From the NCBI GenBank assembly GCA_000934665.2, contig KZ538493.1, positions 1 to 64,000 on the forward strand: a stretch of 64,000 bases of DNA, read 5' to 3'. The DNA comes from Catajapyx aquilonaris. Its lineage: Eukaryota. How positions within the stretch are numbered: position 1 is the stretch's first letter; every line of letters starts with the position of its first letter. Made by a program: the position numbers and the translations under genes. The notes under the pieces are model-generated. The model had not been told where the DNA came from. It ran no database searches and worked only from the letters and a program-made list of their open reading frames with translations. Shown piece by piece: positions 4,958-61,528 of this stretch.

Positions 4958-7900
4958 ATGGCCACCCAAGGACACAACTTGTTGCCCCACATTGTGTCCC
5001 TCCTGGAGCGAAGCCTGACTCAGTCGGACAGGATTGAGAGGACCATGGCAGAGGTGGACAGGAGGATGGGTCAGATGGACAGGAGGATGACTGAGATGGA
5101 CCAAAGGATGGCCAGGATAGAAGGGTTCATCCTGAAGGAACAGGAGGAGAAAGGGAGGAAGAAGAGGAGGAGGAGGACTTCTCATGAAGAAGGTTTGGTG
5201 AAATATTCAAGCCCTATCTATGCCCATTGCATTTGTGGGAACATATACAATACTGTTGCTCTCTGTTCCCTACAGAACTGCGTCATGAAAGAAGCTCTGA
5301 TGTATCTATCGAAGATCATCAGTCAGAGCAGCATGTACATCAAGGGACGTCTGCAAGTTTTGATCTACTTGGAGGGAATGGAGGGCGGGCCGAAGGACAA
5401 GTAAACACTTTGGAGGTAGAGGTGAGCTGTACATGCATTTCTGGTCAGCAGAACACCATCCGACTATTCATTATTATTATTATGGAACCAATAACTCGAA
5501 CACAATGTATGGTGGGCGAATATATGCACAGTGGGTGAATTGCCATGGGGTGAACGTGTATCGGGCAAGTCGTTACAGAACCTAACCAGAATAATCACGA
5601 TCTTTCAGGTTCTTGTTAACATTCAATCATTGAAAGTAACTTCCCATACAATAAAGTATGTGCTGCCAAACATAGCAAGGTTCCTGGCATCAAATTGTTT
5701 CATATTAGGGAATTGCCAGGGAAAATAAATATGTGCAAAACTTTGAAATTCCAATGATCTTTGTACTTATTCCTGAGAGCAGAGTTTACACCAGGTTTAC
5801 AGTGCATTTCAATGGACTCCAGCTGATATTCATCACTTTTCTGACTGACATCACATGAGAATGGAGAGGCAAACAGCTCAAAATCTTTCTCACACAATTT
5901 GAAAGTCTCTCATTTCGAATTCAGTAATTAACATTGCAATTTTTTTTTTTCATAAGCATTGAAATTAAGTTCCCAGTCCTTGTGCATGTGACATTTGGGA
6001 ATCTCAGAAGCTACATTTTTCAAGACTTCCCCACTTAACCCATGCTGGCATAGCCATATAAAGGAATTGGTTCCTTTTCCATTACGAAATCGGTCGATAT
6101 GTTGGCAATTGTCAGCTTGTTGGAATAGGGCCATGGGCTGGAAATACGCTGCCCGCAGGCCGCTTGTTTGAGACCTCTGGGGTAGAGCATTTCGTACCCA
6201 TTGTACCCAGTGAGGGTTCCTCTGTGTCCCGAAACTGCTTCACCCATCTTTCTGATGCTGTGATTGTCAGGGGCTTTGTCGTGGCGTCCCAGCCCAAAAT
6301 GGTGACAAAAGATCCCTTGTACAGTTATGGGCAGCTCTATTTTTAAAATACATCTCCATGACGAATGGATGGTGTTCAGTTGACCATGAAGCCATATTTG
6401 TAAATGGCACATCTTTCCTACTCCTGCACATGCCCATATCCTGCGCATGCACAAACTACACCACTGTACCACGTGAATCAAATCCTGCTATACAGGGTGA
6501 AGGGAAACTCATGAAAAATGGCCAGGTAGACTCATAGTACTCCCAAAACTAATATAGGGACGTGCAATTAGTTTTGGGCTCCTTTAAAGTGTAGAGGGCC
6601 GGATGGTAAAATATGAGGTAAAAACAACAAAGTACATGGGTGTTGTACCTGGATTTTCACTCTGATGTCATTTGATCACCTCTGCACATGGACAATATGT
6701 TATTGACCCAAGCCCGGATTGTTCGGAGGCCCTCGAGCTGGCTTTTGCTTCTGTAAAGCTAGCAGAACCGATGTGGTGTCATGAAACTTTGACTGCGTCG
6801 TTCGCATTAACTATGCAACGGTGCCCAAAACTAATTGCACATACCTATATTAGATTTACGAGTACTATCAGTTTACCTGGCGATTGTCAGGGAGTTTCCC
6901 TTCACCCTGTATATTTTGCCTAACTCTGGTACTTATGCTTGATGCAATGTAAAGGCATTTTTCTGCCATAAATTGTAACTAATGAAGTTGTTTTCCTTCA
7001 GGGAAACTGGAAGCAGGAGATGACTGAATTATTGACAGAACCAAATGAAGGAAGAAGGGGTGATATTATTTGCTGCATAAGTGAAATCTCATCCCTCTAC
7101 CAGAGTAATGAAGTGGGTGATTCCTTCAATGGACAATCGGAATTGCTTGTGTCTGGGCATCAGGATGTGAGTGTATTGCATTAGAACAACTACAGTATGC
7201 ACGGTTACTTGCATGCTGCATGTCAGAGAAATATTGTGGCTGAGAGGGAATTGTTGTTACTGCAAAGCATGATGTGCTCTCGTGACACAGTCAAGCTGCC
7301 AAAAGTGTGACACAAAAGCAACAACAGCTTAGAGTAACTGGTCTTGGGGGGGAAAGCCAACTCAATTTTAATATCTCTAATTCAGATAAGTAAGTTAATC
7401 AAGTAAAGCATCCACCTGGGGAGGCGGAGTGGTGCTGCGGTAACGTATGCGCCCACGCATGTTAAGGTCCCGGGTTCGATCCCTGCCCGGGAACACCCCC
7501 TTTATCTCGTGCAGAGTTCATTGGGTCACCTCTGGCTTCGTCTCGGGTGGTATTTCCTACAGACTAAACCACCCGGGGTAGTTCACTAAAAATGGCCACA
7601 TAAAGACATTGCACTGCACCGTCCACATCCCCTCCTGTCATCCTGCCCGTGCGCCCGGGTGTTACGTATAAAGGTTCCGATGTAAGTATGAGTATATAAA
7701 ATAAACGTCCGTGCTATATACCTCAGATGAGGTCAAGCACTACCTGGATTATTATTATAATTATAATTATAAGTAAAGCATCCATCTTTTCTTAATTACC
7801 ACAACCCACTCTGACCTGCATGGGGAGGACAGAGCATAGCCCATTGTCTCTACACATGTTGATTTGTTACTTTCTTATAGTTTGCACCTGAATTTTGCAT

Positions 7901-8710
7901 GCTGGTTTAGGGAGATAAAATGTGTTTTGGCCGGAGTTAATTTTTATCAATTTCTTTCCAAAGAACCAGCTGCCATCCAAGGACCCTTTTCAATGTGGCA
8001 TCTGCAACAAGACTTTCAACATTCCGTCTGCTCTGGAAGAATGTGTCAAGTCGCATGCAGTGAGAGTTGAAGAGAAAGAGGAGGTTTTACAGGCTTGGTC
8101 AGGACAACAAAACAGCTCTGTGGTCCAGGGAAATTCATCTGGAAGAAGTGTATCTCCAAAGCTTCTCCAGGAAAATGAGACTGAGAGGACCCTATTAAGA
8201 TGCAGAAGGAAAGAAAAGGGAGGGAAAGGGGCTGCGAAACCTGCATCGTTCTCTTGCAAACTGTGTTCATATGCTACCAGTGAAAAAGTGGAATTTGCTT
8301 CTCATCAGTTGGTCCATTCAGCACATGGTAAGGTTAATAAAGGAGGGAGTAAATCAAAATTTTCCTGCAAATTGTGTGGTGCCATCTTCACCACCAAATC
8401 TGGTCAGTCTGTTCATATGAAAGCTGTTCACCTTGGATTAAAGCCTTACCAGTGTGAGGTGTGTGGAATGGCATTTACCTCTCCGTTTAATAGGAAAAGG
8501 CACAGCATGGTCCACGCAGGTGAAAAACTATTCAGTTGTCACGTGTGCCTTAAATGCTGTGGAACAAAATCTGAGTTGACTAGGCATATGCGCATACATA
8601 CAGGAGAAAAGCCATATTCTTGCCAATTTTGCGATCATAAGTGCAGCGATCAGTCTAACATGAGTAAGCATGTGCTACGATGCCGCAATTTGAGCCATAC
8701 TCAATCCTGA
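4958..8710 (+). CDS. Complete 4-exon coiled-coil + C2H2 zinc-finger protein
   Basis: Exons 4958-5192 (MATQGHNLLPHIVSLLERSL... coiled coil, phase 1), 5276-5421 (phase 0), 7002-7166 (phase 0) and 7964-8710 (zinc fingers). All introns are GT-AG and the frame is continuous. The last finger ends H-x3-C. Confidence 0.85.
5600..6179 (-). mobile_element. Degenerate hAT (Charlie/Spin, GTF2IRD2-like) transposon remnant in intron 2
   Basis: Minus-strand fragments FELFASPFSCDV...YQLESIEM and FPNMKQFDARNLAMFGSTY resemble the hAT C-terminal dimerisation region. A CAGAGGTCTCAAAC terminus lies at 6166-6179. Stops and frameshifts are present. Confidence 0.65.
6493..6909. mobile_element. Tc1/mariner-type MITE
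   Basis: TA-flanked, termini CAGGGTGAAGGGAAACTC...GAGTTTCCCTTCACCCTG, with about 90-bp imperfect inverted arms. Confidence 0.8.
7418..7770 (+). mobile_element. tRNA-derived SINE
   Basis: Pol III A-box-like TGGTGCTGCGG and B-box GGTTCGATCCC; (ATT)n tail; 17-bp TSD AAGTAAAGCATCCA[C/T]CT at 7401-7417 and 7771-7787. Homologous to the copy at 9568-9910. Confidence 0.85.
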
Positions 8711-11436: not shown

Positions 11437-12000
11437 TAAAACTGGAAGCAGGAGATGACTGAATTATTGACCCAACAAAATATAGGAAGTTGGGGAAATA
11501 TTTTATATTTTATATTTATTTTACTTACCCCATTGGGAGAATATCAGCACTCCTTTAGGGGGGTGGAATACCACCATTTTGTCATGTCAATTTTTCTAAT
11601 TTTTCTTCTAACTCTGGTGCAAGGATGAAAGGACATGCTGGGTAAGGTTAGGGATTTTTGGGGAGGGGTCACAGGTGCAAGTGCAATGTCTGAAAAGGGT
11701 CATGTGCAGTCCCCCAGGAGGCTAGGTTGCCAAGACGCCTCCTTAGGCGCGGGTCAGAGACCCACTGACGCAGGCGGAAGGAACTCCCGGGCGGGGATCA
11801 AACCCGTCCCGGGTTTGATCCCCGCCCGGGAGTTCCTTCCGCCTGCAAGCCGAGACGTTACCATCTCGGCCACCACGCCTCCCCCAAGTTGGGGCAATAT
11901 TGTTGTCCGTGTGAATGAAAACCCATCCCCATGCCAGAGTAAAGAAGTGGAATATTGCTTCAGCGGACAAGTGGAATTTCATGCCTCTGGTCATGAGAAT
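11437..12000 (+). pseudogene. Dead family unit: exon-3 homolog with a stop codon and SINE insertion; zinc-finger exon deleted
   Basis: The acceptor is followed by TAA in place of GAA, then NWKQEMTELL... and ...ASGHEN|gtgagt. Downstream sequence (about 12150-12490) resembles family 3' UTR with no ZF exon in between. Confidence 0.75.
11503..11885 (-). mobile_element. tRNA-derived SINE containing a perfect internal inverted duplication
   Basis: 16-bp TSD AAGTTGGGG[A/C]AATATT at 11487-11502 and 11886-11901; A/T-rich tail at 11503-11525; 37-bp perfect stem at 11770-11806 / 11810-11846. Confidence 0.8.
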
Positions 12001-12792
12001 GTGAGTGTCTTGCTTTAGGGCAAATATACGTTATGCATATGGTTACAAGGGGATGCAGCATTGGCAGGGAACTAATGCTGTGCATATGCAACGTCTTCAC
12101 GAAGCATAAGTAAAAAAAAAGAGAGAGAGACACCCTGAATCCTGCAGTGTTAGGGAACTTTCCCAGCAAGAAAAATTTCAAGAGACAGAATAATAAGTGA
12201 ATAAGTTTGGACATGTTTTCAGTTCAGTAATATGACCTGTGTCAAAATCTAATATTAAATGCCTTGTACTGTACAAGTAAGAGAATGCTGGTGAAATGCG
12301 AGACCAGGACATGCCAACCAGGAGGCCAGACTTGGATACTGGTTGTATGCTCATGATGATAATAAGTTGCACTTGAATTTTCAGCATCTATCTCCCCATT
12401 GCCTTATAATTTGTGTGAAATTTATTATTACTGAAAATAATACACCAGACATGGACATTCCCAGCCCACATTGAAGAGTTTTAACCTATTTATTTTGGTC
12501 ATTTTCCTTCAGTCAAATAATGACAATCACCGGAGTCATGTTTTCAGATCACTGATGATGGCACCTCCGTCACTTGTTGACGTAAATACTCATTTTCATA
12601 CAATTAGAAAACCTTAGCCAGTATTGTAAAATTAATGAAGGAAGACCTGGGAAGACCAAGTCATGTAGTATTTTTAATGCAAAAAGGTATTGTGAAGTTC
12701 AAGCCATTTAGTCATTTCGAACAGCTCCGTGGAGGCCGCTCCATTCCGTTTGTGTGAACATATGCAATGCTGTTTCTCTCTATTGCCTACAG

Positions 12793-12938
12793 AAGTGCAC
12801 CATGAAAGAAGCTCTGATGTTATTATTGAAGAGCATCGGTCAGAGCAGCATCAACATGGAGGGACGACTGCAAGGTTTGATCTTCTTGGAGGAAATGGAG
12901 GGTGGGCCGAAGGACAAGCAAACACTCTGGATGTAGAG
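12793..12938 (+). pseudogene. Orphan exon-2 homolog; promoter core and coiled-coil exon deleted
   Basis: 146-nt exon (EVHHERSSDVIIEE...LDVE) with intact AG/GT. Upstream, promoter-flank sequence (gaacagctccgtggaggcc) joins directly to intron-1 sequence at about 12737. Confidence 0.7.
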
Positions 12939-13879
12939 GTAAGCTGTACCTGAATTTTTCTGCTTGAGGTTTATGGTAGGTCCACCAAATGTCAATGTTT
13001 CATTATGCTGTAGAAATGGCTAATATGAGGTCTCCCGTGGCTCGATTTGGTAGTATTATAATACAACCAAACAAAATAATTTTTTAAAAAATTTACTGGT
13101 ATAACCCTGACGGAAATTTCGTTCACCATAGCCCTAGGAAATGTTCACAGTTTATATCTTCAGGGGTATTTACGCCACTGGCGTGATATTTTTAATGGCA
13201 CGCCATCATATGCCTAAGGTTTCATTCATTTAGATAGATTAGATCAAAAACATTCCCTTCAGTGAAAAAAGGGTAGTAAGACCTCAGTGGCGGAATAAAA
13301 GTACTGAAACAAGGCTGGCGCACGTAAGACCTTCACCAATTGATTTAAGCTGTACTCAAGCAATTACCAATTTACTAATGAAATCTCCTTTCTGAAAACA
13401 AATTTGTGGAATTTCTGTCGTACTACTAGTTACTTCTAACTTAGCAGTACCAGTGTAGTGCAATGGTACTGCTAAGTTAGCAGTAACTACAGACCTATAG
13501 TTAATAGTAATAATAGTACGACGAAAATTACGTTTATGGCGTAACCTATCTGTACTGCAGGAAGTACTGCACAACCGACACCATTTCCTTCTGCAATAGT
13601 AGTGGAAGACCCGTGAAGCACGGGTTTGCTGCTGGTGGGGCTGACAGAGGGTGGCCAGTGTTGGATTCTCAGCACCCACGCGTATAAATTATACGAGTGT
13701 ATAGGCAAGAGCTGTATGGGCTGGTTCTACTGGAATATGACCTGTGAATAAGGAAAATGACGTCCTTCAATCTCTTGAATTAATAAGAACACGTTATTTA
13801 CATCCATTACTATGAAACCGTCATATTGTTGTCAACAATATGGAAAACGGAAAAACGCGGAATTTTTAGGGGGCTTTTA

Positions 13880-15052: not shown

Positions 15053-15799
15053 AACCAGCTGCCATCAAGGGACCCTTTTCAATGTGGCATCTGCAACAAG
15101 ACTTTCAACATTCCATCTGCTCTGGAAGAATGTGTCAAGTCCCATGAAGTGAAAGTTGAACAGGAAGAGGAGGTTATGGAGGTTATGGAGGTTTCTCAGT
15201 CGGGACAACAGAACAACTTTGTGGCACAAGGGGAGTCATCTGAAGGAAGTGCATCTCCAGAGCTCCTCCAGGCAAATGAGACTGAGAGGATCCTTTCAAG
15301 ACGCACAAGGAAAGAAAAGGGAGGGAAAGGGGCCAAAAAATCCGCATCGTTCTGTTGCAAAGCCTGTGCATATGCTACCAATGAAAAGAAAGAGTTTGTT
15401 TCTCATCAGCTGACCCATTCAGCACATGGTAAGGTCCGTCCAGGAGGGAGTAAATCAAAATTTTCCTGCAAATTGTGTGGTGCCAGCTTCACTTCTAAAC
15501 TATCTCAATCTATTCACATGAAAGCTGTTCACCATGTGTTAAAACCTTACCAGTGTGAGGTGTGTGGAATGGCATTTGGCAGTCCTTCTCATCTGAAAAG
15601 GCACAGCATGGTCCACACAGGTGAAAAACCATTCAGTTGTCAAGTGTGCCTTAAATGCTTTGGAAGAAAACCTGATCTGATGAAGCATATGCGCAAACAT
15701 ACAGGAGAAAAGCCATATTCTTGCCAGTTTTGCAATCGTAAGTTCAAGGATAATTCTAGCATGCATAGACATGTCCGACGATATCATGCCGCAATGTGA
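15053..15799 (+). CDS. Intact C2H2 zinc-finger terminal exon lacking its own intact upstream exons
   Basis: Phase-0 acceptor ccaaag|AAC; 249 codons with the full finger set. The nearest upstream family exons are the remnants at 12793-12938 and 11437-12000. Confidence 0.75.
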   Translation, partial: NQLPSRDPFQCGICNKTFNIPSALEECVKSHEVKVEQEEEVMEVMEVSQSGQQNNFVAQGESSEGSASPELLQANETERILSRRTRKEKGGKGAKKSASFCCKACAYATNEKKEFVSHQLTHSAHGKVRPGGSKSKFSCKLCGASFTSKLSQSIHMKAVHHVLKPYQCEVCGMAFGSPSHLKRHSMVHTGEKPFSCQVCLKCFGRKPDLMKHMRKHTGEKPYSCQFCNRKFKDNSSMHRHVRRYHAAM

Positions 15800-16674
15800 A
15801 CCTCACTCAATTCTGAGGAAGAAAATTTTGTCGAGTTTTTGAGTTGTTACAGACGTTTCACAGTATGAGAAATCACATTTCACTACTGCCACTGTATGCT
15901 ACTACTCACAGTCAGAAGCAACTTTACTTTTTTTGTTTTATTTAAACTATTGCAACAGGAAGTTTGTGATATGTACTGAGTTCATTATGACCTGTGTCAA
16001 AATGTAAGGAACAATAATGCCCACCACATGCAGGAGAAAATAATGAAATGCAAATGAAATGCAACACCAGGACGAGCTGAGCCTGAGAAAAGACTTGGAT
16101 GTGTACTGTATAAATGTTGGTGATGGAGTTGCTGGGAAATATATTCAGGGAACATTATTTGTTGGTGATTTTATTGATTTGTATGAAAGTCTATTCAAAT
16201 ACACACGTCATGGATTTCTCCAGCCCACATTGAAGAGTTTTAACTAATTTTTAAATGTCACATTAACACAATCAAGTGGACACACTTATAATATTGCTGT
16301 GTTTACATTCCAGGTTACAGCTTGTGATGTTGCCTCGCTTCATGTGAATAAACCTTTTGATCAAATTGGAAAACATTACAACCGGCTTGGTGACATGGCT
16401 GTATATTAAATGAAGTGCCTCAATGAAGCTCATGTTGTATTTTAAATGAAAAAAGGTATCGTGAAAATGCAAGCCAGATAGTGATTTGCAATTTGAACAG
16501 TTCCTAGGAGGCCACTTGGCGTCGATCCGAATGCGCCCAACATGGCGTCAGATTAGTTCTCTACCTTTTTCCTCTGCTCCCATCGCTTCGTTTCCTCCCT
16601 TCCTCTGGACACTGGCCCATCATTCTCCCCTCTTCAAGACTGCCCTGCTTGTTCGTGGAACTGGTGAGGAGGAC

Positions 16675-18812
16675 ATGGCCACCCAACCACCAACCTGGTT
16701 GCCCCACATTGTGTCCCTCCTGGAACGAAGCCTGGCTCAGACCGACAGGATGGAGAGGACCATGGCAGAGATGGACAGGAGGATGGCCAGGATAGAAGGG
16801 TTCATCCTGAGGGAGGAAGGGGATGGAGGTTGGGTGGAATTCAGAGTCCCGGAAAGCCCTACTCTCTCATTTCTCTCTACATTATTTACTTTCTGTTCCC
16901 TACAGAACTGCATCACGAAAGAAGCCATGATGTTACCGTTGAAGATTATGAATTAGAGCAGCCTCTACATCAAGGGACTTCAGCAATTTTTGATCTTCAC
17001 GGAGGAAACTCTGGACAGGCTGAAGTAGCAAACAGGACTTTAGAAATACAGGCAAGCTGCTTGTCATTCTTCTGTGGATGTCGAGTGTTAGCATCTTCAT
17101 GGGTTTAAGGCTTTGGGGTGTTAAGGTAAAGGCCGGTATCCACGTACAAGTTTTCTCGTATACGAGGAGCCAACTGCGCATGCCCGGATACGAGGAATGA
17201 GGAAAAGTTGAAAATTTTCAACTTTAATCCCCTTTTTGGGGGACAAGAGGGGCCCTGACGCGACAAAGAGTCCGTCTCGACGTACAACATTTCTCGTGTA
17301 CGAAGACTCGCATACGAGGAACTCGCACGTTGATACTGGCCTTTAGGCTGGCTAAAGGTTCATTCACACAGCCATCTGTGTTTCTGGCGAAATATTTCTG
17401 TTTAAATCATTCTAACGATCGTTTATTTTTAAAAAGCATTTTTGAGTGAGTCCGAAGGATGATGCTTGATTCTGCTGAAGTATTGCCTAGTCACTCAAGA
17501 TGGGTTTTGCGATTTACATATTTAAGCACATTGAAATGCAAAGGAATTTTGATTAATGAAATTATTTTCCATCAGGAAAACTGCAAGCAGGAGGTGACTG
17601 AATTATTGACACTACAAAATGAAGGAAGAGATGCTGCTGTAACTATAACTGAAAACCCATCTCTATACCAGGGTAATGAAGTGAATGATTCCTTCATTGG
17701 ACAAGTGGAATTGCATACATCTGGACATGAGAATGTGAGTGTATTTTCTTTGGATATTAACATTAACCATGGTTATAGGGAGGCTGTCTGGAAGAGAAAT
17801 GTGTAGACAGGAGGGGATTGTTGGGGCTACAAAGTGTGGCATGTTCTCACGACACAGTCAAGCTGCCAAGAATGTGTCACAGCAGTAGCAGCTTAGAAGA
17901 ACTGTTTTTTTTTCTCTTCTGGTGCAAAGTCAAAGAAATGTTAACGTCTCAGTTTCTGTAAAGTAATCGTGTCACACATCCACCTTATATAAATCACCAC
18001 AAAATTTTGTAAGTGATTTATATAAGTGTCTGAGGAAGCTTAAACTGATTCAAATTCATTTGTATCCAAAGAACCAGCTGCCCTCCAGGGACCCTTTTCA
18101 ATGTGGAATCTGCAACAAGACTTTCAACATTCCATCTGCTCTGGAAGAATGTGTCAAATCTCATGAAGTGAAAGCTGAAGAGGAAGAGAAGGTTATGGAG
18201 GTTTCTGAGTTAGGACAACAACACATCTTTGTGGCACAGGGAGAATCATCTGGAGGAAGTGCATCTCCAAAGCGTCTCCTGGAAAATGAGACTGAGAGGA
18301 CCCTATTAAGATCCAGAAGGAAAGAAAAGGGAGGGAAAGGGGCCAAAAAACCTGCATCGTTCTGTTGCAAACTGTGTTCATATGCTACCAGTGAAAAGGT
18401 GCAATTTATTTCTCATCAGCTGACCCATTCAGCACATGGTAAGGTCCATCCAGGAGTGAGTAAATCAAAATTTTACTGCAAATTGTGTGGTGCCAGCTTC
18501 ACCGCTAAAGGATCTCTATCTTGTCATATGAAAGCTGTTCACCTTAGAATAAAGCCTCACCAGTGTGAGGTATGTCGGATGGCTTTTAGCAAATCTCACG
18601 ATCTGAAGCGTCACAGAATGACCCACACAGGTGAGCAACCATTCAGTTGTCATGTCTGTCATCAACGTTTTGTTGCAAAATCTTATTTGACTAGGCATTT
18701 GCGCACACATACAGGAGGAAAGCCTACTTATTCTTGTCAATTCTGTGATCATAAGTTCTCCACGAAGGAGGGGATGACTAAGCATTTGCGACGTCGCCAT
18801 GCAACAACTTGA
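16675..18812 (+). CDS. Complete 4-exon coiled-coil + C2H2 zinc-finger protein (short coiled-coil form)
   Basis: Exons 16675-16828, 16906-17051 (GC donor), 17576-17734 and 18072-18812; phases 1/0/0; frame continuous. Confidence 0.85.
17130..17342. mobile_element. PIF/Harbinger (Tourist-like) MITE in intron 2
   Basis: Imperfect TIRs AGGCCGGTATCCACGT...ACGTTGATACTGGCCT flanked by TAA/TTA. Confidence 0.65.
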
Positions 18813-49867: not shown

Positions 49868-50873
49868 TCACTTTTTGTTGCACTGACCACTGTCCAATGT
49901 TTTCTGAACCACTGGTGAATCCTGTGCGGCACAACTGGTGAGACGCATCTTTTTAGCTGATGGACTTTCAGGGCGAGGTGCTGACACTCCTTCGGTTGAT
50001 GACTGGAAGGAGGAAGTGTTGTACATTTGATTGTAATTGGGTCTAAACGATTCAGAGTATGAAACTCACCGAAGGAGCCGCTTGAGGTCCAAAGAGTGTT
50101 GGTTGGGCATGAGGCCACAGCTTTGTCTTTAACGTCGAGGTGCACTGACTCACATCGAAGTGGAGTGAGCAAAATGTAGCACGTGGGCGCTTCTTTCCAA
50201 TACATGCTTGCAGAAGTGAATCACTACAGTTTGCAGCACAGAGCCACTCGCGGCATCTGCAAGGAAATGAATGGCCGATAATGCTGCAATACATCTTGTT
50301 AGACACGATAAATCTCATGGATTAGGTAGTTACAAATAAAACTGGGTGTACGTTATATGGTGCATTACAAGAGCATTTTCATTTCAATCACTGAGACTGA
50401 GACTGAGAGGAAAATTGTGAGTTTAAAATATAAAGACACACTGTTTACCACTAACCTGACCTCTGTGTCTTTCATTTTTCTGTTTTACATGCACAAAATT
50501 GTTCTTAAAGAGTAAACTAAATTATCTGTGAACAATTGGGAGGAGGGAAACAGTTTATTTTTAATCCCAGATTTTCCCAATTTGCTTTGAGATATGGCAT
50601 TTAAATGTAAGTATAATGATAGCTTTTTCTTACCTTTCCGGATTACCTGGTACTTGAAAGAAAGACAATTCTGGGCGTTTTTTCTTTGTAGTGTTGCATC
50701 CTGGTACCATGCAGGACTGTCCACCTACTGAGTAAGTCCTGACTGAAAAATCGAAGAAAGAAAAAAAAGGCACTAAGAATAACTTCATTATGGAGTGCCA
50801 CAAGCCGAGTTATGTTAGGATTGTGCTTGATAATAATACCTCCATTGTATTGGTGGCGATTAAAACCTGCCAT
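49868..50873 (-). CDS. Small THAP-domain protein, copy A (about 145 aa)
   Basis: Putative exons 50873-50867 (ATG GCA G, weak donor), 50742-50634 (SCMVPGC...SFFQVPGNPE), 50256-50070 (CREWL...FCSLHF...LWPHAQPTLF) and 50002-49868 (PSAKKMRL, stop). Frame continuous. Confidence 0.65.
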
Positions 50874-52312: not shown

Positions 52313-55300
52313 TTATGTACAACCTGTTTGTGAATCCTTCCTCACACTTTGCACACGAGTATGGCTTCGTGCATGAATTATCAGAGCCCTTTCACGACTA
52401 AATCCCTTTCTGCACACATTGCAAGTGTAAGGCCGTATGCCATAATGCACAGCTCGAGTGTGCGCAGTGAGAGTACTTTTTTGCGTGAATCTCTTCCTGC
52501 AGCGTTCACAAGCAAATGGCTTTTCTGCATTGTGTTTTAACTGGCATGCCTTGTGGCTTCGCATGTGATATTTAAGAGCCCTTCCATGAGGGAATGCACC
52601 ACCACACACATCGCAATGCTGTATTCCACTATGAAGGCTTTTCAAATGTGCTGTGAGAGTACTCTTTTGGGTGAAACTTCTTGGACACAAGACGCATCTA
52701 AACGGCTTCTCCCCTGTGTGAATTAACTTATGATCCCTTAAATGCCCCTTGTTCTTGGTGCTGTATGAACACATATCACAGTAGTGCAGCTTTCTGGTAC
52801 CTGGTTCTGTCTTTGGAATAAGCAGTGCGGACACACCAGCATTGTCTTCCTCACTTCCTCTTTCCTCACCTGGTTGGATCACATCTGGTGTAAGAATACC
52901 AGCTGGTTCCTTTGAACTTCCAGGTTTAGACAAAGCATATCCATGTTCCTCATTGACCTCAGCTACAGTGACATGTGACTTAACACATGCTGTAAGTTCA
53001 GCTGCTTTAGCAAAAGTCTTCTTACACACTCCGCATTGATAAGTCATCCACGATGAACTAGGGTCATTCTGAAATTTAAAAAATATATATTAGCCATCCA
53101 ATTTTTCCAGAATTTCTCAAAGTACTACTTCAGTTACAGATGTACAAGGAAAGCGTAACTAACTTCTTCAACTGCAATTGGGTCAGTTGCTACCGAACTG
53201 TTAAAGGAAACGCTGCCAAAGGGATCATCTGGCTCTGATTTGACAGTTCTTCTGGCATTCCTCACATGGTCTTGTGATGTTTCAATAGTTCCATCCTCGC
53301 AGTCATCCTGCAAGATAATAATTTTTTAAATTTTTTGCATCAAAAAAGCCTGGCTTATACCATCCGTCTAAACCGTAAGAGAGAATGACAAATGTTTTTC
53401 GGATTCGGATTCAGCGGACCTTAAGTAGGTGTCATGGTCATCTTCCAGTCTGGTTTTCCGGGTTCACTCCATAGGCCAAGGTCAAGTCTAGCTTTCAATG
53501 GGAATGGGCTTGGCAATGGGAAATGAGACTGACATAATTCTATGTCATTACTGTCCAATTAGAATCGCATCACATCGTCAGTGTCATTTCCAGTTGCCCA
53601 ATGAAAAATAAAGCTACCGGTACGTTTACATGCAAGAGATTTCATCAGCGACTGAACGAAAGTAACAATCCTGTGGTATCATTTTATTTTCGCCCCCCAA
53701 ATAATTGGTCTCATCGCTCAGCAATGTACCGTACATCACTGCAACATAGCTGATCAAATCGCTCACATGTAAACGTGCCATAAGCTGCGTTTACATATGA
53801 GCGATTTGATGAGCTAAGTCTTTGCCGAGGCTGAGTAACCCAAGTAACCAATATTGTTTGAGGCAAAAATCGATTGTTAATTTCGGCCTCGGTGAAGATT
53901 TCGCTCACATGTAAACGAAGCTTTAAGGTGGAAATGAAGCTAGAGTCACTTAATGAGAATTTTATGAAAAAAACATAATTATGTTACGCAGTTTTACTGT
54001 TACGCAGTTAAAACTCCCCACCCCCGTGGGTGCCCCAGTGGTTATTACGTTGCATAGTCTATGGATAAACATAAAATGCAATTATGTTGCTGCAGAACCA
54101 TCAAGGATGGAATTTTAATCCCACTGCTATAGTTACTGCTAACTTAGCTATTCCAGTACCAACACTGGTACTGCTAAGTTAGAAGTAACTATAGCAGTGG
54201 GACGAAATCGACCGTAAATCGTTACCAAGCGCGCGAGAGTCGAGATGGGACCTATGGCTAGGCACTATGCAAATGGTCCGCAAGAGTGCTGCAAGAGTTT
54301 GAACTTTTGGACGGTCACAAAAATACCACGAAACATCACCAACACATATACGTCTCTCACTTACACATTTTATGTGTTAGTGAGAAGTGAGCAGCGCCAG
54401 TAGCACCTTGCGACCGGAACGCCCACTTTTGCTAGGACGCTGAAAATACGGCCCATAATACAGGGTGATGTCACGAAATTCGCACATAATCGCCAGGTAG
54501 AGTGCCAGAGCGCCAGCCACAAATTATAATCTATCATGACCCTCATCTTCCTCACCTACACATTTCCTTACCATTGTCACTTTTTGGTTATATACAGGGT
54601 GTATCTGAACTCAGTGCCCCGACGTATATGACTGCCTTCCTAGCCACCAGAGGATCGATTGAAGTATAGGAGTCATTATGTCTGGCAGCCGCATTACTGA
54701 GATAATTGGCCGCAAACATGTAGTACAAAATATCCTGTCGGTTAGGCCACCCATCGAACCCTCCCCCAGTCAGAAGGCTCTGGAAGGTCTGGGGGCGGGA
54801 CTTTGTTGGTTTGTTGCCCACAGGATGGTGGTAAGGCCTCTTTGGCTATAGTTACACCAGAAAATTTTATTTAAAGGTCAGGAGCGATTAGGCAAAAATC
54901 GTTAAAGAATGTATCTCAGTAATGAGGCTGCCCAGACATAATGACTCCTCTACATAAGTTGATCCTCTCGTGGCTAGGAAGGCAGTCATATACGTCGGGG
55001 CACTGAGTTCAGATACACCCTGTATACTGGCAGTGTGGAAGATGACTTACTGAAAGGTAAGGAAAAGAAAAATGAGGGAAAACAAAAAACAAACACGTCA
55101 GTTATGTTTCACCCCATTAGGGGGAACTGTGCCATTTTGGGAGGCCGGGGACTACATGTAAGATTGTCATTCTTCTCAACAGTGGCACAGTTAGTTCATT
55201 TATTGAAGAATCCAACAACTGACTTAATAACTCTCGCTGAATTTGTAACACGTGGTTTCCCACTTCCAATATTTTCACTAAGAAAGGCCCAAATGCCTTC

Positions 55301-57707
55301 CTGCCCCCCATGAGCGAATACGTCTCTGAGCTTGTCTATTGTCACACCTGCTGCAGCCATCTTGGCTATAATACCCTTAGAAATGGAACCAGCAAGTGGT
55401 GCAAGACCCAGTGCAATTTGGGCATTCTTGGCCTTGTCCTGTTGACTGCGCACAAACACTGATAATGGCACACTATGGCTGAGCAATGCACTACCAATGT
55501 CCAATGTCTTGCAGACACCTTCTAGTGCTAGCACATCGGAAGTAGCTTCGTGGGCTCCACTCGCATCATATCCGGCAACATATTTTTCTGCCAGAGCTGA
55601 CAGCTTGTAGGTGGGCTCCTTCTTCCACTTCTCCTTGTCTTCTTTGTGGAGAGACCTCATCAGTGGAAGCGTATCAGCCACACCCCATACGACACCTTCA
55701 AAACTACTGCCAAGTCCATTGCGCTTCATTGCATCCAAAAGTCTAGGTACATCAAAGGCAAAAGCATTGTGCCCCGCCAACACAACATTTTCCCCAACAC
55801 TGCGCAAGAAATCAAGGAACTTCTGCAAAGCATCTTCCACAGGTAATGCCGCCACTCCTTGACCACGGTGGAAAAGTTCTCCATCCACTACTGAGAGTCC
55901 TGTGATGGCACTTGCTGTAGCTGAGATGCTATGGGATGGTTTGGCATATACACTAAAGGGTGGGGTTCCAGAACCAGCGCATTTACCTGCGACCTGAATA
56001 ATTTCACAATTCCTGTGAAGCCCAGTAGTCTCGATGTCGAAATACACCAGCACTCTATTATCAAGCTCTGGACATGCAGATCCTGAGGGCAAGGTGGAGG
56101 CATCAGGGGCCTGAAGAAAGCCAACATCTGCCAGATATGAGACTCCTTCCCTCTGCTCCATACCTCGCCGTTGTTGGCTTCGTTGCTTCTTCACGAAGAG
56201 CCGCCTTGACTTGTATCTTTCTGAATTCTTCAGAATTCTGATCCGGTACCGTAGAGCATCTTTTCTTTTCCTAGCTTTCTCTGTCAAGATACCTGGCGAC
56301 ATGGACAGCTTCTTGAAAGTTTGGCTGGAATACGCAGTCTCCAAATTTTTCTGACTGACAGCAGCTGCCACACGGCTGTTGAGGCTGGCACTGCCTCCGT
56401 AAAACTTTGCCTTGGGAGTCTTGCTGATGACGATGCTATTGAAGCTCTCATTTGCTTGGCTTGATCCCCCCGGGGCAAGTTTTGCCATCGGCACCTAAGG
56501 CGTGAATGAGCTAGTTACGAACTATTCATACTGAATTACGGAAAGTGGACACAGTCTCTCACCTGCTTCAGCTCCCGTATCACAGCACACAAGCTTCAGA
56601 GGCAAGTACGGCACACCAACGCCCCAATTTTCGTGCACACCGGCAGCGGAACCAAGCAAAATCAGTCGAGAAATACTGCTAGAAAAATCCACCGACTAGC
56701 ACTAGTTTTTTTCTTCGTCAAACTCCCCCACCCTTGTGGGTACCAGTTCACGAATCGAATTATTCGAATCCACCGGGCAAAGACGTCACATACTGCTACG
56801 CGATAATTGGCCCGGACCTTTGCTGCGTTGCCACTTCTATCTGTCACACGCGTACATACCAACTGAACGTGTTCCAAATCCGACACAAATGAAGAGCTAC
56901 AAGCACCCCTTTCGGAACTAAACTTTTTAAAATGCCATGACAAATTGGGACCTCGTAATTATGACCGAATAAAATCGATTTCCATCCAAAAAAAATAATA
57001 TTAACCATACCTCTAAATTCCATGAAAATGGCGCCTGCGCACAAAAACTTCCAGCCGGTAATAGGCCCATATTAAATTGAGTTTAAAACACAGATTAGAA
57101 TGGAATGCATAGGATTGAACAGCATTTACTGCTGCATCGGTTGCGTATGTTTCCCTGATTTTAGCCCTTCTTATTAACATTCCAATTCTAGACTCTCATT
57201 TGATTAGCAAGTCGCTTCATTTCCACCTTAAGTAATGCAGAGGAAGCAGGTCATACCAGGCACACAAATAAGCCTGCAATATTTAAATGCGAGATACGCT
57301 AACACAGTCACCTCGGTATATACACTATGCGATGATTGTGTTATGATTCCGTCGGAGCTTCCTGCTGGAACTGGCCCACTCCGCATGTACTCTTCCGGTA
57401 AGAACTCTTGAAGAAATTCTTCACCTCCAGCGCCTTTATGGAGATAATACGAGATCAGTAAGACATACTGCGACACAGTGACTAATACCCAACCTGCTGC
57501 AGGTCGTGTCCTCCTTTCCGTCAGGATGAACCCTTCTATCCTGGCCATCCTTTGGTCCATCTGAGTCATCCTTTCGTCCATTTCTACCATCCTTTGGTCC
57601 ATTTCAGACATGGTCCTTTCCATCCGGTCAGTCTGGGCAAGGCTGCGCTCCAGGAGGGTCACAACGTATGCCAGGCTTGTGTTGGGGAGTGATGATAAGG
57701 CGGCCAT
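52313..57707 (-). CDS. Complete 4-exon coiled-coil + C2H2 zinc-finger protein (divergent finger array)
   Basis: Exons 57707-57494 (LLERSLAQTDRMERTM...MARIEGFIL), 57433-57312, 53307-53164 (VKSEPDD) and 53068-52313 (CxxC-x12-C-x3-H finger plus five C2H2). Phases 1/0/0. Confidence 0.85.
53619..53922. mobile_element. Two adjacent short PIF/Harbinger-like MITEs
   Basis: Inverted pairs ggtacgtttacatg...catgtaaacgtgcc (about 53619-53779) and agctgcgtttacatatgagcga...tcgctcacatgtaaacgaagct (about 53783-53922). Confidence 0.6.
54595..55022. mobile_element. Tc1/mariner-type MITE
   Basis: TA-flanked; TIRs of about 110 bp beginning CAGGGTGTATCTGAACTCAGTGCCCCGACG, perfect over the outer 50 bp or so. Confidence 0.9.
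55196..56494 (-). CDS. Mutator-like transposase C-terminal region fused to a DEDDh (DnaQ-like, PML-C/Exuperantia-type) 3'-5' exonuclease
   Basis: 432-codon open frame. N-terminal part SSQANESFNSIVISKTPK..YGGS.SL..RVAAAVSQKN...REGVSY is typical of Mutator-like transposase tails. ExoI YFDIETTGL, ExoII GHNAFAFD and ExoIII AHEATSD are all intact. Lies in intron 2 of the 52313-57707 gene on the same strand. Confidence 0.85.
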   Translation of the reverse strand: MPMAKLAPGGSSQANESFNSIVISKTPKAKFYGGSASLNSRVAAAVSQKNLETAYSSQTFKKLSMSPGILTEKARKRKDALRYRIRILKNSERYKSRRLFVKKQRSQQRRGMEQREGVSYLADVGFLQAPDASTLPSGSACPELDNRVLVYFDIETTGLHRNCEIIQVAGKCAGSGTPPFSVYAKPSHSISATASAITGLSVVDGELFHRGQGVAALPVEDALQKFLDFLRSVGENVVLAGHNAFAFDVPRLLDAMKRNGLGSSFEGVVWGVADTLPLMRSLHKEDKEKWKKEPTYKLSALAEKYVAGYDASGAHEATSDVLALEGVCKTLDIGSALLSHSVPLSVFVRSQQDKAKNAQIALGLAPLAGSISKGIIAKMAAAGVTIDKLRDVFAHGGQEGIWAFLSENIGSGKPRVTNSARVIKSVVGFFNK

Positions 57708-58175
57708 GGGTTCGACAAGCACAGGGGCGGCCACGGGGCAGTAAAAGTAGGCGAACGAGGCTCGAAATAGTCGGAAATGGAAAAACGTTCTATTTCCAAG
57801 AAACAGACGCCATATTTGTTGGGGCGCATTCGGGTGGTCGCTAAGTTGAACAGTTCGTAATTGAGCTACTGTGAGTGTGCTGCCATCTCTGAACGGAATG
57901 GCGAAACACATTACTGTAAAGCGAAATACAGTAGCATTGTTGATGGCCCACTCACTTGAGATACATTGTTGGCATGATCCCACCAAATCTAAGATGGGTT
58001 ATCATCAATCCATACCCCATGCCTGATTTGCAGAAATTATATAAAACTCTTCAATGACGGCTGGGAAATTCATATAACATGAATGCTGAGGATCTGAAAA
58101 GACATTTATTTCACACAAATCACAATCACATGTTGGAAAATTCTTTGGGTGTGCAAGTGCAACACATCAAAAATG

Positions 58176-58851: not shown

Positions 58852-59159
58852 TACTTAAACATAACCCATATTCAGGTGTTCTGTCAAGTTCTGCTTGTCC
58901 TGGTCTTGTATTTCACTAACGTTCTCCTACATGTATGAGTTTTTTCATTGATTAGATTACCTCACTTGAATATACCTTAGATTTTGACAGAGATCATGTG
59001 AAACTGAATAAATACGAAAACTTTTGGTTTGCAGGAGTTTTAAATTAAACAATAACTTAAGTTGCTTCCTCAGAGCAGTACCATACAACATCGGTACTGA
59101 AATGTGCTTTCTCAAACTCTGAAAAGTTGTTTTTCTTGCTGCGAATTTCTCCCAATACC

Positions 59160-61528
59160 TCAAGATCGAGTGTGGCTTGCACTTGCTGTATGAAGGCGTC
59201 GCACATGCACATTCATGTTATGCTTCAAGGTGAAAGTACGATTGCAAAATTGACAAGAATATGGCCTTTCTCCAGTATGTTTGCGCAAATGCTTAATCAT
59301 GTCAGATTTTGCAGCAAAACGTTTATGGCAGACATGGCAAGTGAATGGTTTCACACCTCCGTGAACCATTCCGTGATACTCCAGCTGCTGATAGTAGCTG
59401 AAAGCCATCCCACACACCTCACACTTGTAAGGTTTTAAACCAAGGTGAACAGCTTTCATATGAACAGATTGATAATATTTTGTGGTGAAGCTGGCACCAC
59501 ATAATTTGCAATAAAATTTTGTTTGACTCTCTCCTGGATGGAAATCATCACGTGCTGAATGGGCCAACTGATGAGAAGCAAATTCTCCCTTGCCATTGGT
59601 AGCATATGAACAGACTTTGCAACAGAATAAAGCAGGTTTTGCAGCCCCTTTCTCTACCTTTCCTTTCCTCTTGCATCTTTCTTGGGTACACTCAGTCTCA
59701 ATTGCCTGGAGATGATCTGGAGATGCACTTCCTCCAGAGTATTCACCCTGTACCACAAAGATGTTTTGTTGTCCTGACTGAGACATGTCCATAACCTCCT
59801 CTTCTTGTTTAACTATCACTTCATGAGACTTGATGCATTCTTCTAGAGCAGATGGATTGTGGAAAGTTTTGTTGCAGATGCCACATTGAAAAGGGTCCCT
59901 GGATGGCAGCTGGCTCTTTGGAAAGAAATGGATAAATATTAGTGTCAATCAGTCATGAAAATCCTGAGATGCTGTAATTAACTTGAAAACTTTATAATAA
60001 GCAAGGCCATGCCCCCCAATTCTTCTGATTTCTGCCAGCTTAATTATTGTGTCGTGGTCCTATAATAACACTTTGCGCAACCCACCAATCTCCTCCTGTC
60101 CGCACTATTTTTATTACAAGCATCATCCCAGGAATAATGTAGTTGCTCCAAGGCAGTACACTCACATCCTGATGCCCAGGCGGATGCAATTCCACTTGTC
60201 CATTGAAGGAATCATTCACATCATTACTCCGGTAGAGGGATGGGTTTTCAGCCACGCAGCAATCAATATCGGACCTGCTTCCTTCAGTTTGTCGCGTCAG
60301 TAATTCAGTCATCTCTTGCTTCCAGTTTTCCTAAAGGAAAATAACATCATTAATTTCAATGTGAAGCAGCAAAATGCCTCTCCATTGCAACATGTACAAG
60401 TGCTTCAATCAAATGATTTAATTCAGCAATACTTCTGTAGGCTTATGGTTCACTCTCAAATACTCTTCTTTTCACTAAACAAGTTTGAACAAGTTATTTA
60501 TAAATCTTGGGAAACAGATGGCTGTGTCATACCTTAACCATGGAACCGGGACGTAGGGTATTTAGGACCCCAAAGGAAGTAAAAATGCAAAATGCATCGC
60601 AATGAGTGACCTTGAAACGATAATGACCTAAAACTCCGTGTATTCCTTAAAAAAACTTAATTTCATGGATCAAATCTGGTTTCATAATTTTCACACCTAC
60701 CAAAATGTACATAAGTCGTTGTTTTTGGACCCATGCTCTCGTGGGGTCCAAAAGGAGACCCACGTCACGGTTCGGGGCATACACGAAAGAAAACTCTCCA
60801 CTAGAAAATTAAACTGTTGCCATTTTCAAAAACAGTATATAACAGAAAGTGCATGTTTATTTTGAATTAGCGATCATTTTATACATTGTTCAAAGAATGA
60901 TTGCATGTAGCCAACACATTGAAAAGTATTATCAAAAAATTAATAAAAATAAAAATATGGCATGTCACGGTTAATGTCACTTTCAGGCATTTCACGATTC
61001 CAGGGTTAACACCACAAAGGCCAAACCCATGATCTGAAATGCAGCATCATACGACACCGACATTTGCTTAATCTACCATAATAATCCTCAGAAGAATTAC
61101 AGATGAAGCTTACCTCCACCTCTAAAGTGTGGTTCACTAATTCAGGCTGTCCAAAAAGTGCCCCATGCATGTCAAAAGTAGCAGAAGTTCCTTGATGAAC
61201 TGGTAGATGCTGCTCTGACAGACCTTCTTCAATAGTCGTATCAGAGCTTCTTTCATGATGCACTTCTGTAGGGGGTAAAGAGTAAACGGTATTGTATACT
61301 TTACAACAAAGACAATAGGGCTTGAATTCCCAACTCAGAGCTACACCTAACCTTCATCATGAGTTGTCTTCCTCTTCCCTTCCTCTTCCCTCAGGATGAA
61401 CCCTTCTATCCTGGCCATTCTCCTGTCCATATCCGCAATGGTCCTCTCAATCCTGCCAGTCTGGGTCAGGCTTCGTTCCAGGAGGGACACAACGTGGGGC
61501 ACAACAAGGTTGGTTGTTGGGTGGCCAT
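59160..61528 (-). CDS. 4-exon coiled-coil + C2H2 zinc-finger gene with a +2 frameshift in exon 1
   Basis: Exons 61528-61352, 61265-61114, 60330-60166 and 59915-59160. An extra TG near 61500-61503 relative to paralogs gives MATQQPTLLCPTLCPSWNEA*. Exons 2-4 are intact. Confidence 0.75.
60538..61005. mobile_element. piggyBac-like MITE in intron 2
   Basis: TTAA on both sides (60534-37, 61006-09); imperfect TIRs CCATGGAACCGGGA / CCCTGGAATCGTGA. Confidence 0.6.

Follow-up and report, generated by a model that had tools for sequence, protein, structure and literature searches.

A tandem-duplicated C2H2 zinc-finger gene cluster with putative coiled-coil heads in Catajapyx aquilonaris

Does the 64,000-nucleotide stretch of Catajapyx aquilonaris DNA analysed here (the window) carry a coiled-coil head that has been joined to interchangeable C-terminal domains, or is it the site of a zinc-finger family that has duplicated in tandem? 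The original prediction favoured the former, with a C2H2 array, a basic helix or a BEN domain attached to one conserved head. The window holds seven zinc-finger exons and six head exons (Table 1), and we give a probability of about 0.7 to the reading that they form two inverted arms of a tandem-duplicated, lineage-restricted C2H2 family, whose members would self-associate through their coiled-coil heads.

Table 1. Exons, exon-like pieces and conserved upstream blocks of genes A to I in the window
Feature	Position	Strand	Description
Gene A terminal exon only	182..901	+	zinc-finger exon; tblastn with B exon 4: 67.5% identity, E 1e-97; five regex fingers
Gene B 25-nt block	4793..4817	+	165 nt upstream of ATG, exact match
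Gene B exon 1	4958..5192	+	coiled-coil head of four heptads with a basic tail; phase-1 donor GTTTGG
Gene B exon 2	5276..5421	+	acidic, His-rich linker, ends LEVE
Gene B exon 3	7002..7166	+	GNWKQEMTELL...
Gene B exon 4	7964..8710	+	C2H2 array and stop codon
Gene C region	11440..12000	+	two exon-3-like fragments (11440-11514, 11893-12000) upstream of an exon 2
Gene C exon-2-like piece	12789..12943	+	profile match
Gene C zinc-finger exon	15053..15781	+	72% identity to B exon 4
Gene D 25-nt block	16524..16548	+	151 nt upstream of ATG
Gene D exon 1	16675..16828	+	head with two heptads
Gene D exon 2	16906..17051	+	linker; GC donor (GCAAGC)
Gene D exon 3	17576..17734	+	part of open model
Gene D exon 4	18072..18812	+	C2H2 array
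Gene E exon 1	19328..19559	+	diverged head, longer N-terminus; alternative donor at 19580
Gene E putative exon 2	19652..19821	+	acidic, ends LEVE; read from sequence, open model
Gene E putative exon 3	19990..20148	+	EEDWKPDLGE...; open model
Gene E putative last exon	21115..21519	+	Arg/Lys-rich, then five VTNSEA-like repeats; in-frame phase-0 acceptor, inferred join
Gene F putative last exon	46625..47080	-	BEN-like; weak PDB match to BEND3 BEN domain
Gene F putative exon 3	47222..47332	-	weak donor (GTAGTG or GTGAAG) required, ahead of in-frame stop
Gene F putative exon 2	47491..47723	-	acidic linker containing RKKKRK
Gene F exon 1	47925..48066	-	most diverged head; phase-1 donor GTGCGG
Gene G C2H2 exon	52313..53068	-	diverged; last finger broken by deletion
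Gene G exon-3-like exon	53164..53307	-	acidic, phase 0 to 0; read from sequence, missed by profile
Gene G exon 1	57494..57707	-	head with four heptads; phase-1 donor GTTGGG
Gene G block variant	57811..57833	-	before ATG; alignment
Gene H exon 4	59160..59915	-	C2H2 array
Gene H exon 3	60166..60330	-	profile match and open model
Gene H exon 2	61114..61265	-	linker; profile match and open model
Gene H exon 1	61352..61529	-	head with two heptads; ATG 61528 out of frame, 2-nt insertion near 61500-61503
Gene H 25-nt block	61634..61658	-	130 nt upstream of ATG, 1 mismatch
Gene I exon 4	61856..62590	-	C2H2 array
Gene I exon 3	63048..63212	-	profile match

The six head exons that had been predicted are all present, at ATGs 4958, 16675 and 19328 on the forward strand and 48066, 57707 and 61528 on the reverse strand. 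The ATG is in frame with the head module in five of them; the exception is gene H (61528), with a 2-nt insertion just 3' of the ATG. A profile built from the six heads matches exactly those six open reading frame (ORF) pieces in the window (E 2e-36 to 3.5e-21; next piece, E 0.68), and a profile from the heads of B, D, G and H alone recovers E (E 6.7e-9) and F (E 1.6e-5), with nothing besides the heads at E <= 1 among the 2,106 six-frame pieces of the window. The order within the head is a short variable N-terminus, the signature LLERSLxQ[ST]DR[IM]ER, two or four unbroken heptads and a closing R[IM]ExFI. The closing motif, proposed as [MLV]-x-R-[IM]-E-x-[FYV]-I, is found in 6/6 heads; the opening motif is exact in half of them (B, D and G), while the E copy ends in K, H has G for D, and F carries three differences. 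Against the B/D/G/H profile the E and F heads score 32 and 22 bits, no higher than the unrelated bacterial heptad proteins of the large profile search described below (35-93 bits), so that the case for kinship of E and F rests on the signature, on placement at an ATG, on the phase-1 donor and on location within the cluster.

Within the heptads, positions a and d are Met, Ile, Val or Leu, position e is Asp or Glu, and position g is Arg. Hydrophobic residues occupy 10/10 a/d positions in B and G, 6/6 in D and H, 16/19 in E and 11/13 in F, scores that were attained in 0 to 4.1% of 1000 shuffles per head, and the difference in head length is exactly 14 residues, or two heptads. AlphaFold2, run on the six-sequence alignment, gives a single helix over residues 8-76 (mean pLDDT 89.7), and the profile matches of the head in the PDB are exclusively coiled coils. 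The heads thus combine unbroken heptads, hydrophobic a/d positions and a helix, as a coiled coil does, and the head is predicted to be one amphipathic helix of heptads, 35-65 residues long. It is probably a lineage-specific self-association domain, although the heptad pattern and the helix prediction leave oligomerisation and stoichiometry to be inferred. The dN/dS ratio of the heads is 0.25-0.62 in the 11 of 15 pairs for which it was computable, an imprecise estimate from a small sample; the four saturated pairs all involve F, and the pairs of head E with other heads give 0.25-0.60.

The core of the cluster consists of the four-exon genes B, D and H. Open GT/GC-AG models with phases 1/0/0 run to 430 aa in B, 399 aa in D and 416 codons in H, the last counted from the frame of the module, as there is no open splice model of H from ATG 61528. 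Open splice models with the predicted phases of 1/0/0 could be built for B, D, E, F and H. Both B and D seem intact, as does H save for the 2-nt insertion 3' of its ATG; since H is otherwise open through its four exons, this defect would be recent or an assembly error. The C2H2 nature of the terminal exons is clear from the Pfam zf-C2H2 scores of B exon 4 (73.6 bits) and of the G exon (86.8 bits), against a cut-off of 25.2, and from the 4-5 regex fingers per terminal exon in the seven zinc-finger exons. Similarity among the paralogues is restricted to the exons and about 200 nt 5' of the ATG, and the long introns do not align. The upstream similarity includes a conserved 25-nt block, with three matches in the window (0 expected), which is absent from E and F.

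Genes A and I reach us in part: the remainder of A lies upstream of the window, and exons 1 and 2 of I were not found within it. In the C unit the head profile detected no head exon in the window, and the misplaced exon-3-like fragments point to rearrangement or decay. For G (head at 57707) neither an exon 2 nor an open join to the zinc-finger exon was detected, and the read contigs are one base short at 52477, inside a finger. From their sequences, G and C are most simply taken as decaying copies.

Genes E and F are the ones on which the proposal of exchanged C-termini depends. Both have open models with phases 1/0/0 through predicted joins (321 or 328 aa in E, 313 aa in F), and their middle exons are acidic, as had been anticipated, but no homology of these exons to the middle exons of the core genes was detected: neither BLASTP nor the profile relates putative exon 2 of E to B exon 2, or its putative exon 3 to the core exon 3. 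The basic exon of E, for which searches of families, structures and the Atlas gave no match, may be open by chance. For the last exon of F, searched against 177,635 distinct PDB sequences, the BEN domain of BEND3 (7v9i_A) is a weak match, at E 0.26 in first place and E 0.16 in second; three sub-ranges of this exon gave no Pfam family at E <= 10, no homologues were found, and its single-sequence fold (pLDDT 36.7) is unusable. Of the C-termini originally proposed, the C2H2 arrays are real (with the G join not open and H frameshifted), whereas support for BEN is weak and no match to the basic exon was found; terminal-exon swapping would have to be read from the open models of E and F, which have only the head and the phase pattern in common with the zinc-finger genes. 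The comparison suggests that E and F are old, diverged duplicates in which the head has been retained, and which may have acquired other 3' exons (basic and BEN-like). Just upstream of F, on the same strand, lie two THAP-like ORFs (48461-48817 and 50055-50321), with partial matches to Pfam THAP of 28.1 and 24.6 bits (cut-off 23.9) over profile positions 28-87 and 18-87 of 87.

None of the 24,736 models of Pfam-A reaches its cut-off on the six heads, and for 3/6 heads not a single family is listed at E <= 1. As originally stated, the head is not a KRAB, SCAN, BTB or ZAD domain: none of the four is listed for the six heads at E <= 1, nor is any of them matched by exon 3 of B and E at E <= 10. 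The head profile, run against 1.84 billion proteins, gave 126 matches, all to generic heptad-repeat proteins, mostly bacterial and mostly multi-repeat (x-[IM]-D-x-R-[FM]-x-x repeats), which align to profile positions of about 25-60, the heptad part. Taken literally, this is the result, matches to generic coiled coils only, that had been named as counting against the prediction; however, the signature or a zinc finger occurs in 0/126 of these proteins, and the likeness is compositional and periodic. We read the generic matches as a sign that relatives are absent from the library, rather than as proof of a generic head. Relatives of the head were found in none of the protein collections searched, nor were the zinc-finger proteins of the window itself. 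What stands of the proposed lineage-specific module is thus a real, conserved, family-specific helical head, at the N-terminus of clustered C2H2 genes and without a named family.

Several other explanations of the locus deserve attention. It is possible, though not the reading that we prefer, that tandem duplication has left E, F, G and H as dead or decaying remnants, that the zinc-finger architecture alone is functional, and that the downstream basic and BEN-like ORFs are parts of other genes or of no gene at all. The insertion that splits the ATG of H from its module, the broken last finger and lack of exon 2 or an open join in G (together with the one-base difference of the read contigs), the headless C unit with its misplaced fragments, and the missing upstream block of E and F all fit such decay; yet the head ORFs of E and F are still open with their heptads kept, the dN/dS of head E is that given above, splice-compatible models are open for both genes, and H is otherwise open across four exons. 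We consider doubtful the original idea of a portable effector or oligomerisation module, swapped by terminal exons onto C2H2 arrays, a basic helix and a BEN domain to give a hetero-oligomerising repertoire. The E and F heads were indeed found by a profile that excluded them, their fully open models lead with the family phases into the basic and BEN-like exons, a BEND3 BEN domain ranks first or second among the PDB matches to the F exon, and the F linker contains RKKKRK. Against this, no resemblance between the middle exons and the core exons 2 and 3 was detected in either gene, so the common part is one exon and not a three-exon chassis; BEN is missed by Pfam even at the permissive threshold, in an exon for which no homologues were found; the matchless basic exon of E lies in a 164-codon stop-to-stop frame, which by our estimate is within the chance length for 64 kb; and the model of F requires a weak donor just ahead of an in-frame stop. 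The fuller version, in which an undescribed zinc-finger-associated coiled-coil domain defines a new transcription-factor subfamily, has been captured by the BEN-like exon in F and the basic exon in E, and lets finger-bearing and finger-less paralogues co-assemble into mixed oligomers, is in our opinion unlikely; if true, it would amount to a built-in means of combining or dampening DNA-binding specificities within one young cluster.

The head might also be already named, or the family already described, and have been missed because the proteomes of this lineage are absent from the searched libraries. The absence of the window's zinc-finger proteins from the protein collections makes the lineage seem unrepresented, and some zinc-finger-associated domains, such as FiNZ, are outside Pfam. 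We nevertheless find this improbable, given that Pfam-A holds nothing above cut-off, that the exhaustive profile search did not return the signature, that we found no paper on coiled-coil-headed zinc-finger clusters in the literature, and that FiNZ, a 28-residue Glu-rich sequence unique to cyprinids according to PMC10547256, is unlike a 35-65-residue Arg/Met heptad helix. Most improbable of all is that the whole unit is the cargo of a mobile element and not a host gene family. Over some zinc-finger exons the word depth in the DNA runs reaches 5-25 times the level of adjacent unique sequence, and high-copy repeats are interspersed with the genes; but most of the high-depth bins lie in introns and flanks, and head F and the interior of gene G are at single-copy depth. 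The spliceosomal introns, the conserved promoter-proximal block and the diversifying finger contacts are as in host families, and no transposase or reverse-transcriptase family was found at E <= 0.001 in 48 ORFs (chosen from 93 of at least 95 aa), or at E <= 1 in 20 others (ORFs and exon pieces), with Pfam.

Under the preferred reading of a tandem-duplicated C2H2 family, the canonical member would have four exons with phases 1/0/0, encoding the head, two acidic and probably disordered linkers (exons 2 and 3) and a five-finger array. The head may form a parallel coiled coil, by which the factors would act as dimers or higher oligomers, possibly mixed among paralogues, with a presumably nuclear and regulatory function. 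DNA specificity would be supplied by the finger arrays and would be diversifying among the paralogues. In a comparison of genes A, B, C, D, H and I, pairwise identity is 36% (107/300) at the contact positions of the fingers (-1, 2, 3 and 6), but 72% both at the other finger positions (934/1305) and in the non-finger columns of exon 4 (1503/2095). Such divergence of DNA-contact residues suggests ongoing evolution of specificity, as in transposon-targeting families.

In lineage-specific zinc-finger families, the N-terminal domain by which the family is defined (KRAB, SCAN, ZAD or FiNZ) sets the role of the DNA-bound factor, and to our knowledge very few domains of this kind have been described. 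A coiled-coil head in which the number of heptads varies among paralogues would be a minimal route to multivalent finger arrays, and the family could be an easy system in which to see how oligomerisation shapes target choice. Its overall logic would be that of the SCAN-, BTB/POZ- and ZAD-headed C2H2 families, which have self-association heads, occur in tandem clusters with lineage-specific expansions, and likewise place an N-terminal protein-protein domain before a linker and a C-terminal C2H2 array. These heads are folded multi-helix or alpha/beta domains, whereas the one described here is a single heptad helix, by prediction, with no Pfam match. The KRAB zinc-finger proteins are also clustered and fast-duplicating, with divergent DNA contacts and small separate 5' exons for the non-finger module, but no KRAB match was found in exon 1 or exon 3 here. 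Among heads that self-associate, the ZAD is reported to homodimerise (PMC5009728). BEN factors and THAP proteins are reported (PMC6317261 and PMC13631171) to combine a sequence-specific DNA-binding domain with a coiled coil, a likeness to gene F, which may pair its head with a BEN-like exon and is adjoined by the THAP-like ORFs. The FiNZ proteins of cyprinid fish, as portrayed in PMC10547256, are likewise a large zinc-finger subfamily, whose defining mark is a short N-terminal sequence that is restricted to the lineage and resembles no known domain; the present head, a longer Arg/Met/Asp heptad helix, is set apart from FiNZ by the description of the latter and not by its sequence. Judged from its gene sequences, then, the head family is a lineage-specific zinc-finger family of a known sort, with a head that is new to the protein-family libraries.

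The zinc-finger genes of the window appear, from their sequence, to form a family restricted to their lineage and equipped with an association domain at the N-terminus, which is an already known design. The window is eukaryotic, with spliceosomal-type exons and GT/GC-AG boundaries, and its gene units, A to I (table below), were mapped by tblastn with the exons of gene B, by profiles of exons 2 and 3, and by a splice-boundary solver. Across all units, seven exons encode fingers and six encode the head, which is the coiled-coil helical module of exon 1.

Coordinates of the features in the window
Feature	Positions	Strand	Remark
Gene A, zinc-finger exon	182-901	+	remainder of gene outside window
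Gene B, exons 1-4	4958-5192, 5276-5421, 7002-7166, 7964-8710	+	430 aa
Gene C, exon 2	12789-12943	+	
Gene C, fingers	15053-15781	+	
Gene D, exons 1-4	16675-16828, 16906-17051, 17576-17734, 18072-18812	+	399 aa
Gene E, model	19328-19559 (or 19580), 19652-19821, 19990-20148, 21115-21519	+	
Gene F, model	48066-47925, 47723-47491, 47332-47222, 47080-46625	-	
Gene G, exon-3-like acidic exon	53307-53164	-	
Gene H, exons 1-4	61529-61352, 61265-61114, 60330-60166, 59915-59160	-	
Gene I, exons	63212-63048, 62590-61856	-	
25-nt block	4793-4817	+	
25-nt block	16524-16548	+	
25-nt block	61634-61658	-	
25-nt block variant, before G	57811-57833	-	
THAP ORFs	48461-48817, 50055-50321	-	28.1, 24.6 bits (cut-off 23.9)
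Exonuclease ORF	55199-56494	-	Pfam RNase_T 40.6 bits, PML_C 39.3 bits, both above cut-off
Asparaginase_2-family gene	23470-24359, 25919-26308	+	
High-depth repeat bins	53339-55339, 56674-57340, 60676-61342, 44001-44667, 45335-46668		

Six first exons sharing this head had been predicted, with ATGs at 4958, 16675 and 19328 on the forward strand and at 48066, 57707 and 61528 on the reverse strand, and all are present. A profile of the six was run against every ORF piece of the window in six frames; it matched these six and no others (E 2e-36 to 3.5e-21), and the next-best piece stood at E 0.68. When the profile was built from B, D, G and H only, it recovered E (E 6.7e-9, 32 bits) and F (E 1.6e-5, 22 bits), and no others at E <= 1 among 2,106 pieces. 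The layout is a variable start, then the signature LLERSLxQ[ST]DR[IM]ER, then a heptad run; the closing motif of the original prediction holds in all six heads, and its opening motif is exact in three and only approximated in the remaining three.

The heptad a and d positions are hydrophobic (I, V, M, L) without interruption in B and G (10/10 each) and in D and H (6/6 each), as are 16/19 of them in E and 11/13 in F; these scores were reached by 0 to 4.1% of 1000 shuffles, depending on the head. Asp/Glu and Arg were read from the alignment at the flanking heptad positions, as is usual where salt bridges form between helices. Head lengths are exactly 14 residues apart, which equals two heptads. 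AlphaFold2, given the six-sequence alignment, folded residues 8-76 of B as a single helix (mean pLDDT 89.7), and pairwise dN/dS was 0.25-0.62 in the 11 of 15 pairs for which it was computable, the other four all including F, with saturated synonymous sites. Together, the heptad pattern, the predicted helix and the dN/dS values support a translated, constrained helical module. Prediction of a two-copy complex of the B head gave a score of 0.07 (mark 0.32).

No Pfam-A family exceeded its cut-off for any of the six heads, the best being DUF7310 (17.7 bits, cut-off 40), and three heads had no family at all at E <= 1. A PDB profile search with the head returned 39 sequences at E <= 10, all of them generic coiled coils, including GCN4-fused adhesin stalks, reovirus sigma-1 and KCNQ1 tails. 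Among 1.84 billion representative proteins, searched exhaustively, the head profile had 126 matches at E <= 1e-3, of which two reached E <= 1e-10; no match reached E <= 1e-30. All 14 of those that were read are heptad-repeat proteins; a script screen of the full 126 found neither the signature nor a C2H2 finger, and one stretch covered most of the profile in eight. Word-index protein searches yielded nothing with the head against longer proteins (39 candidates) or with residues 1-135 of the zinc-finger exon (99 candidates), and the best ESM Atlas score of the head, 0.85, was under the useful range. A metagenome scan with the head alignment passed one of 596 pattern matches, a small heptad-repeat protein of bacterial origin, encoded on a GC-rich contig, which does not usefully count as a relative. 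Generic coiled coils are thus literally the sole HMM matches, the very outcome that the original prediction had listed against itself. In our reading, these libraries contain no relative at all, even the window's own zinc-finger proteins being absent from them. Relatives outside the 64 kb window were found in none of these protein, PDB, Atlas and metagenome searches, nor did the literature searches turn up a paper on a coiled-coil-headed zinc-finger cluster. On the sequences compared, the signature part is confined to the heads of the window's zinc-finger family.

In their splice models, the core genes B, D and H join the head through two acidic linker exons to a C2H2 array; these models are open and share the predicted phases 1/0/0, that of H being taken in the module frame. 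Relative to B, gene H carries a 2-nt insertion between ATG 61528 and the head module; the boundary solver found no open model from that ATG, and all four exons are open in the module frame. In sequencing run X1, one contig (depth 125 of 587) is two letters short at the insertion site, 61503, a loss not seen in run X2 from the same sample; this weak signal is compatible with an in-frame paralogue or allele. The donor of exon 2 in gene D is GC (GCAAGC). Gene C has misplaced exon-3 fragments (11440-12000) and no head detectable in the window by profile or tblastn, and exons 1 and 2 of gene I were not found within the window. Paralogues resemble one another in nucleotide sequence only in their exons and over some 200 nt before the ATG, no alignment being obtained across the long introns. 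Within that upstream stretch, 130-165 nt before the ATGs of B, D and H, lies a 25-nt block, GATCCGAATGCGCCCAACATGGCGT, with zero to one mismatch. It is better conserved than the coding exons (3 matches versus 0 expected), none was found upstream of E or F, and it is probably a shared promoter element; its AACATGGCG part looks like a candidate YY1-type site. Long antisense ORFs lie opposite the head exons (4712-5206 on the reverse strand, 61326-61868 on the forward strand, others similar), one example being a 165-codon Pro/His/Leu-rich frame; we take them for a by-product of repetitive heptad codons, not genes.

The C2H2 arrays are clear by Pfam. Among A, B, C, D, H and I, pairwise identity is 36% (107/300) at finger contact positions -1, 2, 3 and 6, compared with 72% at the remaining finger positions (934/1305) and 72% in the non-finger columns of exon 4 (1503/2095), a divergence that bears the mark of diversifying specificity among these genes. 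Five runs cover the window, four of them probably DNA; the fifth, run X5, consists of low-depth genomic contigs, in which splice joints were looked for and not seen, the joints present connecting paralogous or repeated sequence. Word depth is about 30-55 in unique parts of the window, 183-198 and 837-980 in bins over the H and I finger exons, 122-140 and 470-480 in bins with heads G and H, and 40-53 over head F; word depth is not copy number, and these values hint at close paralogues of the finger genes elsewhere in the genome. Very high word depth in the DNA runs (up to ~40,000 versus ~35 for unique sequence) marks high-copy interspersed repeats, which sit inside the introns of G, H and F and in the sequence flanking these genes. 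The window also holds an Asparaginase_2-family gene in large exons (86.3, 36.6 and 29.1 bits), broken by a 153 N gap (24855-25007) and a PNKGSPTH-like tandem repeat. Pfam on 48 more of the 93 ORFs with >= 95 aa added just one asparaginase piece, and neither Rfam nor tRNA scans of the window gave any hit.

The original prediction further held that one head had been set before interchangeable last exons, a C2H2 array, a basic helix or a BEN domain. The C2H2 part of this is clear, the BEN exon has a weak PDB match and none in Pfam, and the basic exon matches nothing. Gene E has one open model, all GT-AG, in phases 1/0/0. Neither BLASTP nor profiles related its exons 2 and 3 to the core exons, the sole resemblances being LEVE closing exon 2 and EEDWK opening exon 3, both small, and its Arg/Lys-rich last exon had no match in families, structures or the ESM Atlas (best score 0.83, under the useful range). 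Gene F is likewise open in phases 1/0/0, its exon 3 relying on a weak donor immediately before an in-frame stop. For its last exon, there was no Pfam match up to E <= 10, a word-index search against longer proteins gave no homologues from 183 candidates, and AlphaFold2 run without an alignment was unusable (pLDDT 36.7). Against 177,635 PDB sequences, a BEN domain of BEND3 came first (E 0.26) and then second (E 0.16). Because BEN had been predicted beforehand, we take this match as moderate support, with perhaps slightly better than even odds that the exon encodes a BEN domain. Genes E and F could be partners that lack fingers, or else relics; full swapping, in which the head moved onto other last exons, is unlikely, with a probability of some 0.2 to 0.25.

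Two partial THAP-domain ORFs lie just upstream of head F, on the same strand and in single-copy sequence. At these ORFs the DNA contigs contain a joint going back 1,454 nt, from 49962 to 48509, suggestive of tandem duplication. The ORF of head F runs upstream of its ATG beyond a strong acceptor-like site near 48131, so that gene F might possess THAP-bearing 5' exons.

The head of gene G is good and ends at a phase-1 donor; the finger exon of this gene is diverged, a deletion disrupting its last finger, and no exon 2 was detected. The boundary solver gave no open solution for joining the head to the finger exon, either through the exon-3-like exon or directly. At 52477, one base of an A-run within a finger is missing at full depth from the contigs of X1 and X2, DNA runs from one sample, implying a frameshift in either the window or the sample. 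The gene looks degenerate. Between its head and finger exon lies an intronless 432-codon ORF, whose PDB matches are DEDDh exonucleases, TREX1 and TREX2 among them (best E 1.7e-26). The inner bins of this ORF (55340-56673) have single-copy word depth, and its 3' end falls in a bin with a high-copy repeat. A direct junction of head G with this PML-C/TREX-like ORF was rejected, the acceptor at the ORF start being out of phase with the phase-1 donor. PML-C/TREX-like genes are reported in PMC10123124 for jawed vertebrates, notably fishes, so that the window might plausibly derive from a fish-like vertebrate.

The head would probably mediate self-association of these factors through a parallel coiled coil, acidic exons 2 and 3 would provide effector regions or flexible linkers, and DNA would be read by five fingers whose specificities diverge between paralogues. 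The SCAN-, BTB- and ZAD-headed families have the same design, whereas the head here is a much simpler module. Clustered, with diverging contact residues and in repeat-rich surroundings, the genes may also be likened to transposon-targeting zinc-finger families. The FiNZ sequence, as described in PMC10547256 and PMC11603059, is 28 residues long, Glu-rich and unique to cyprinids.
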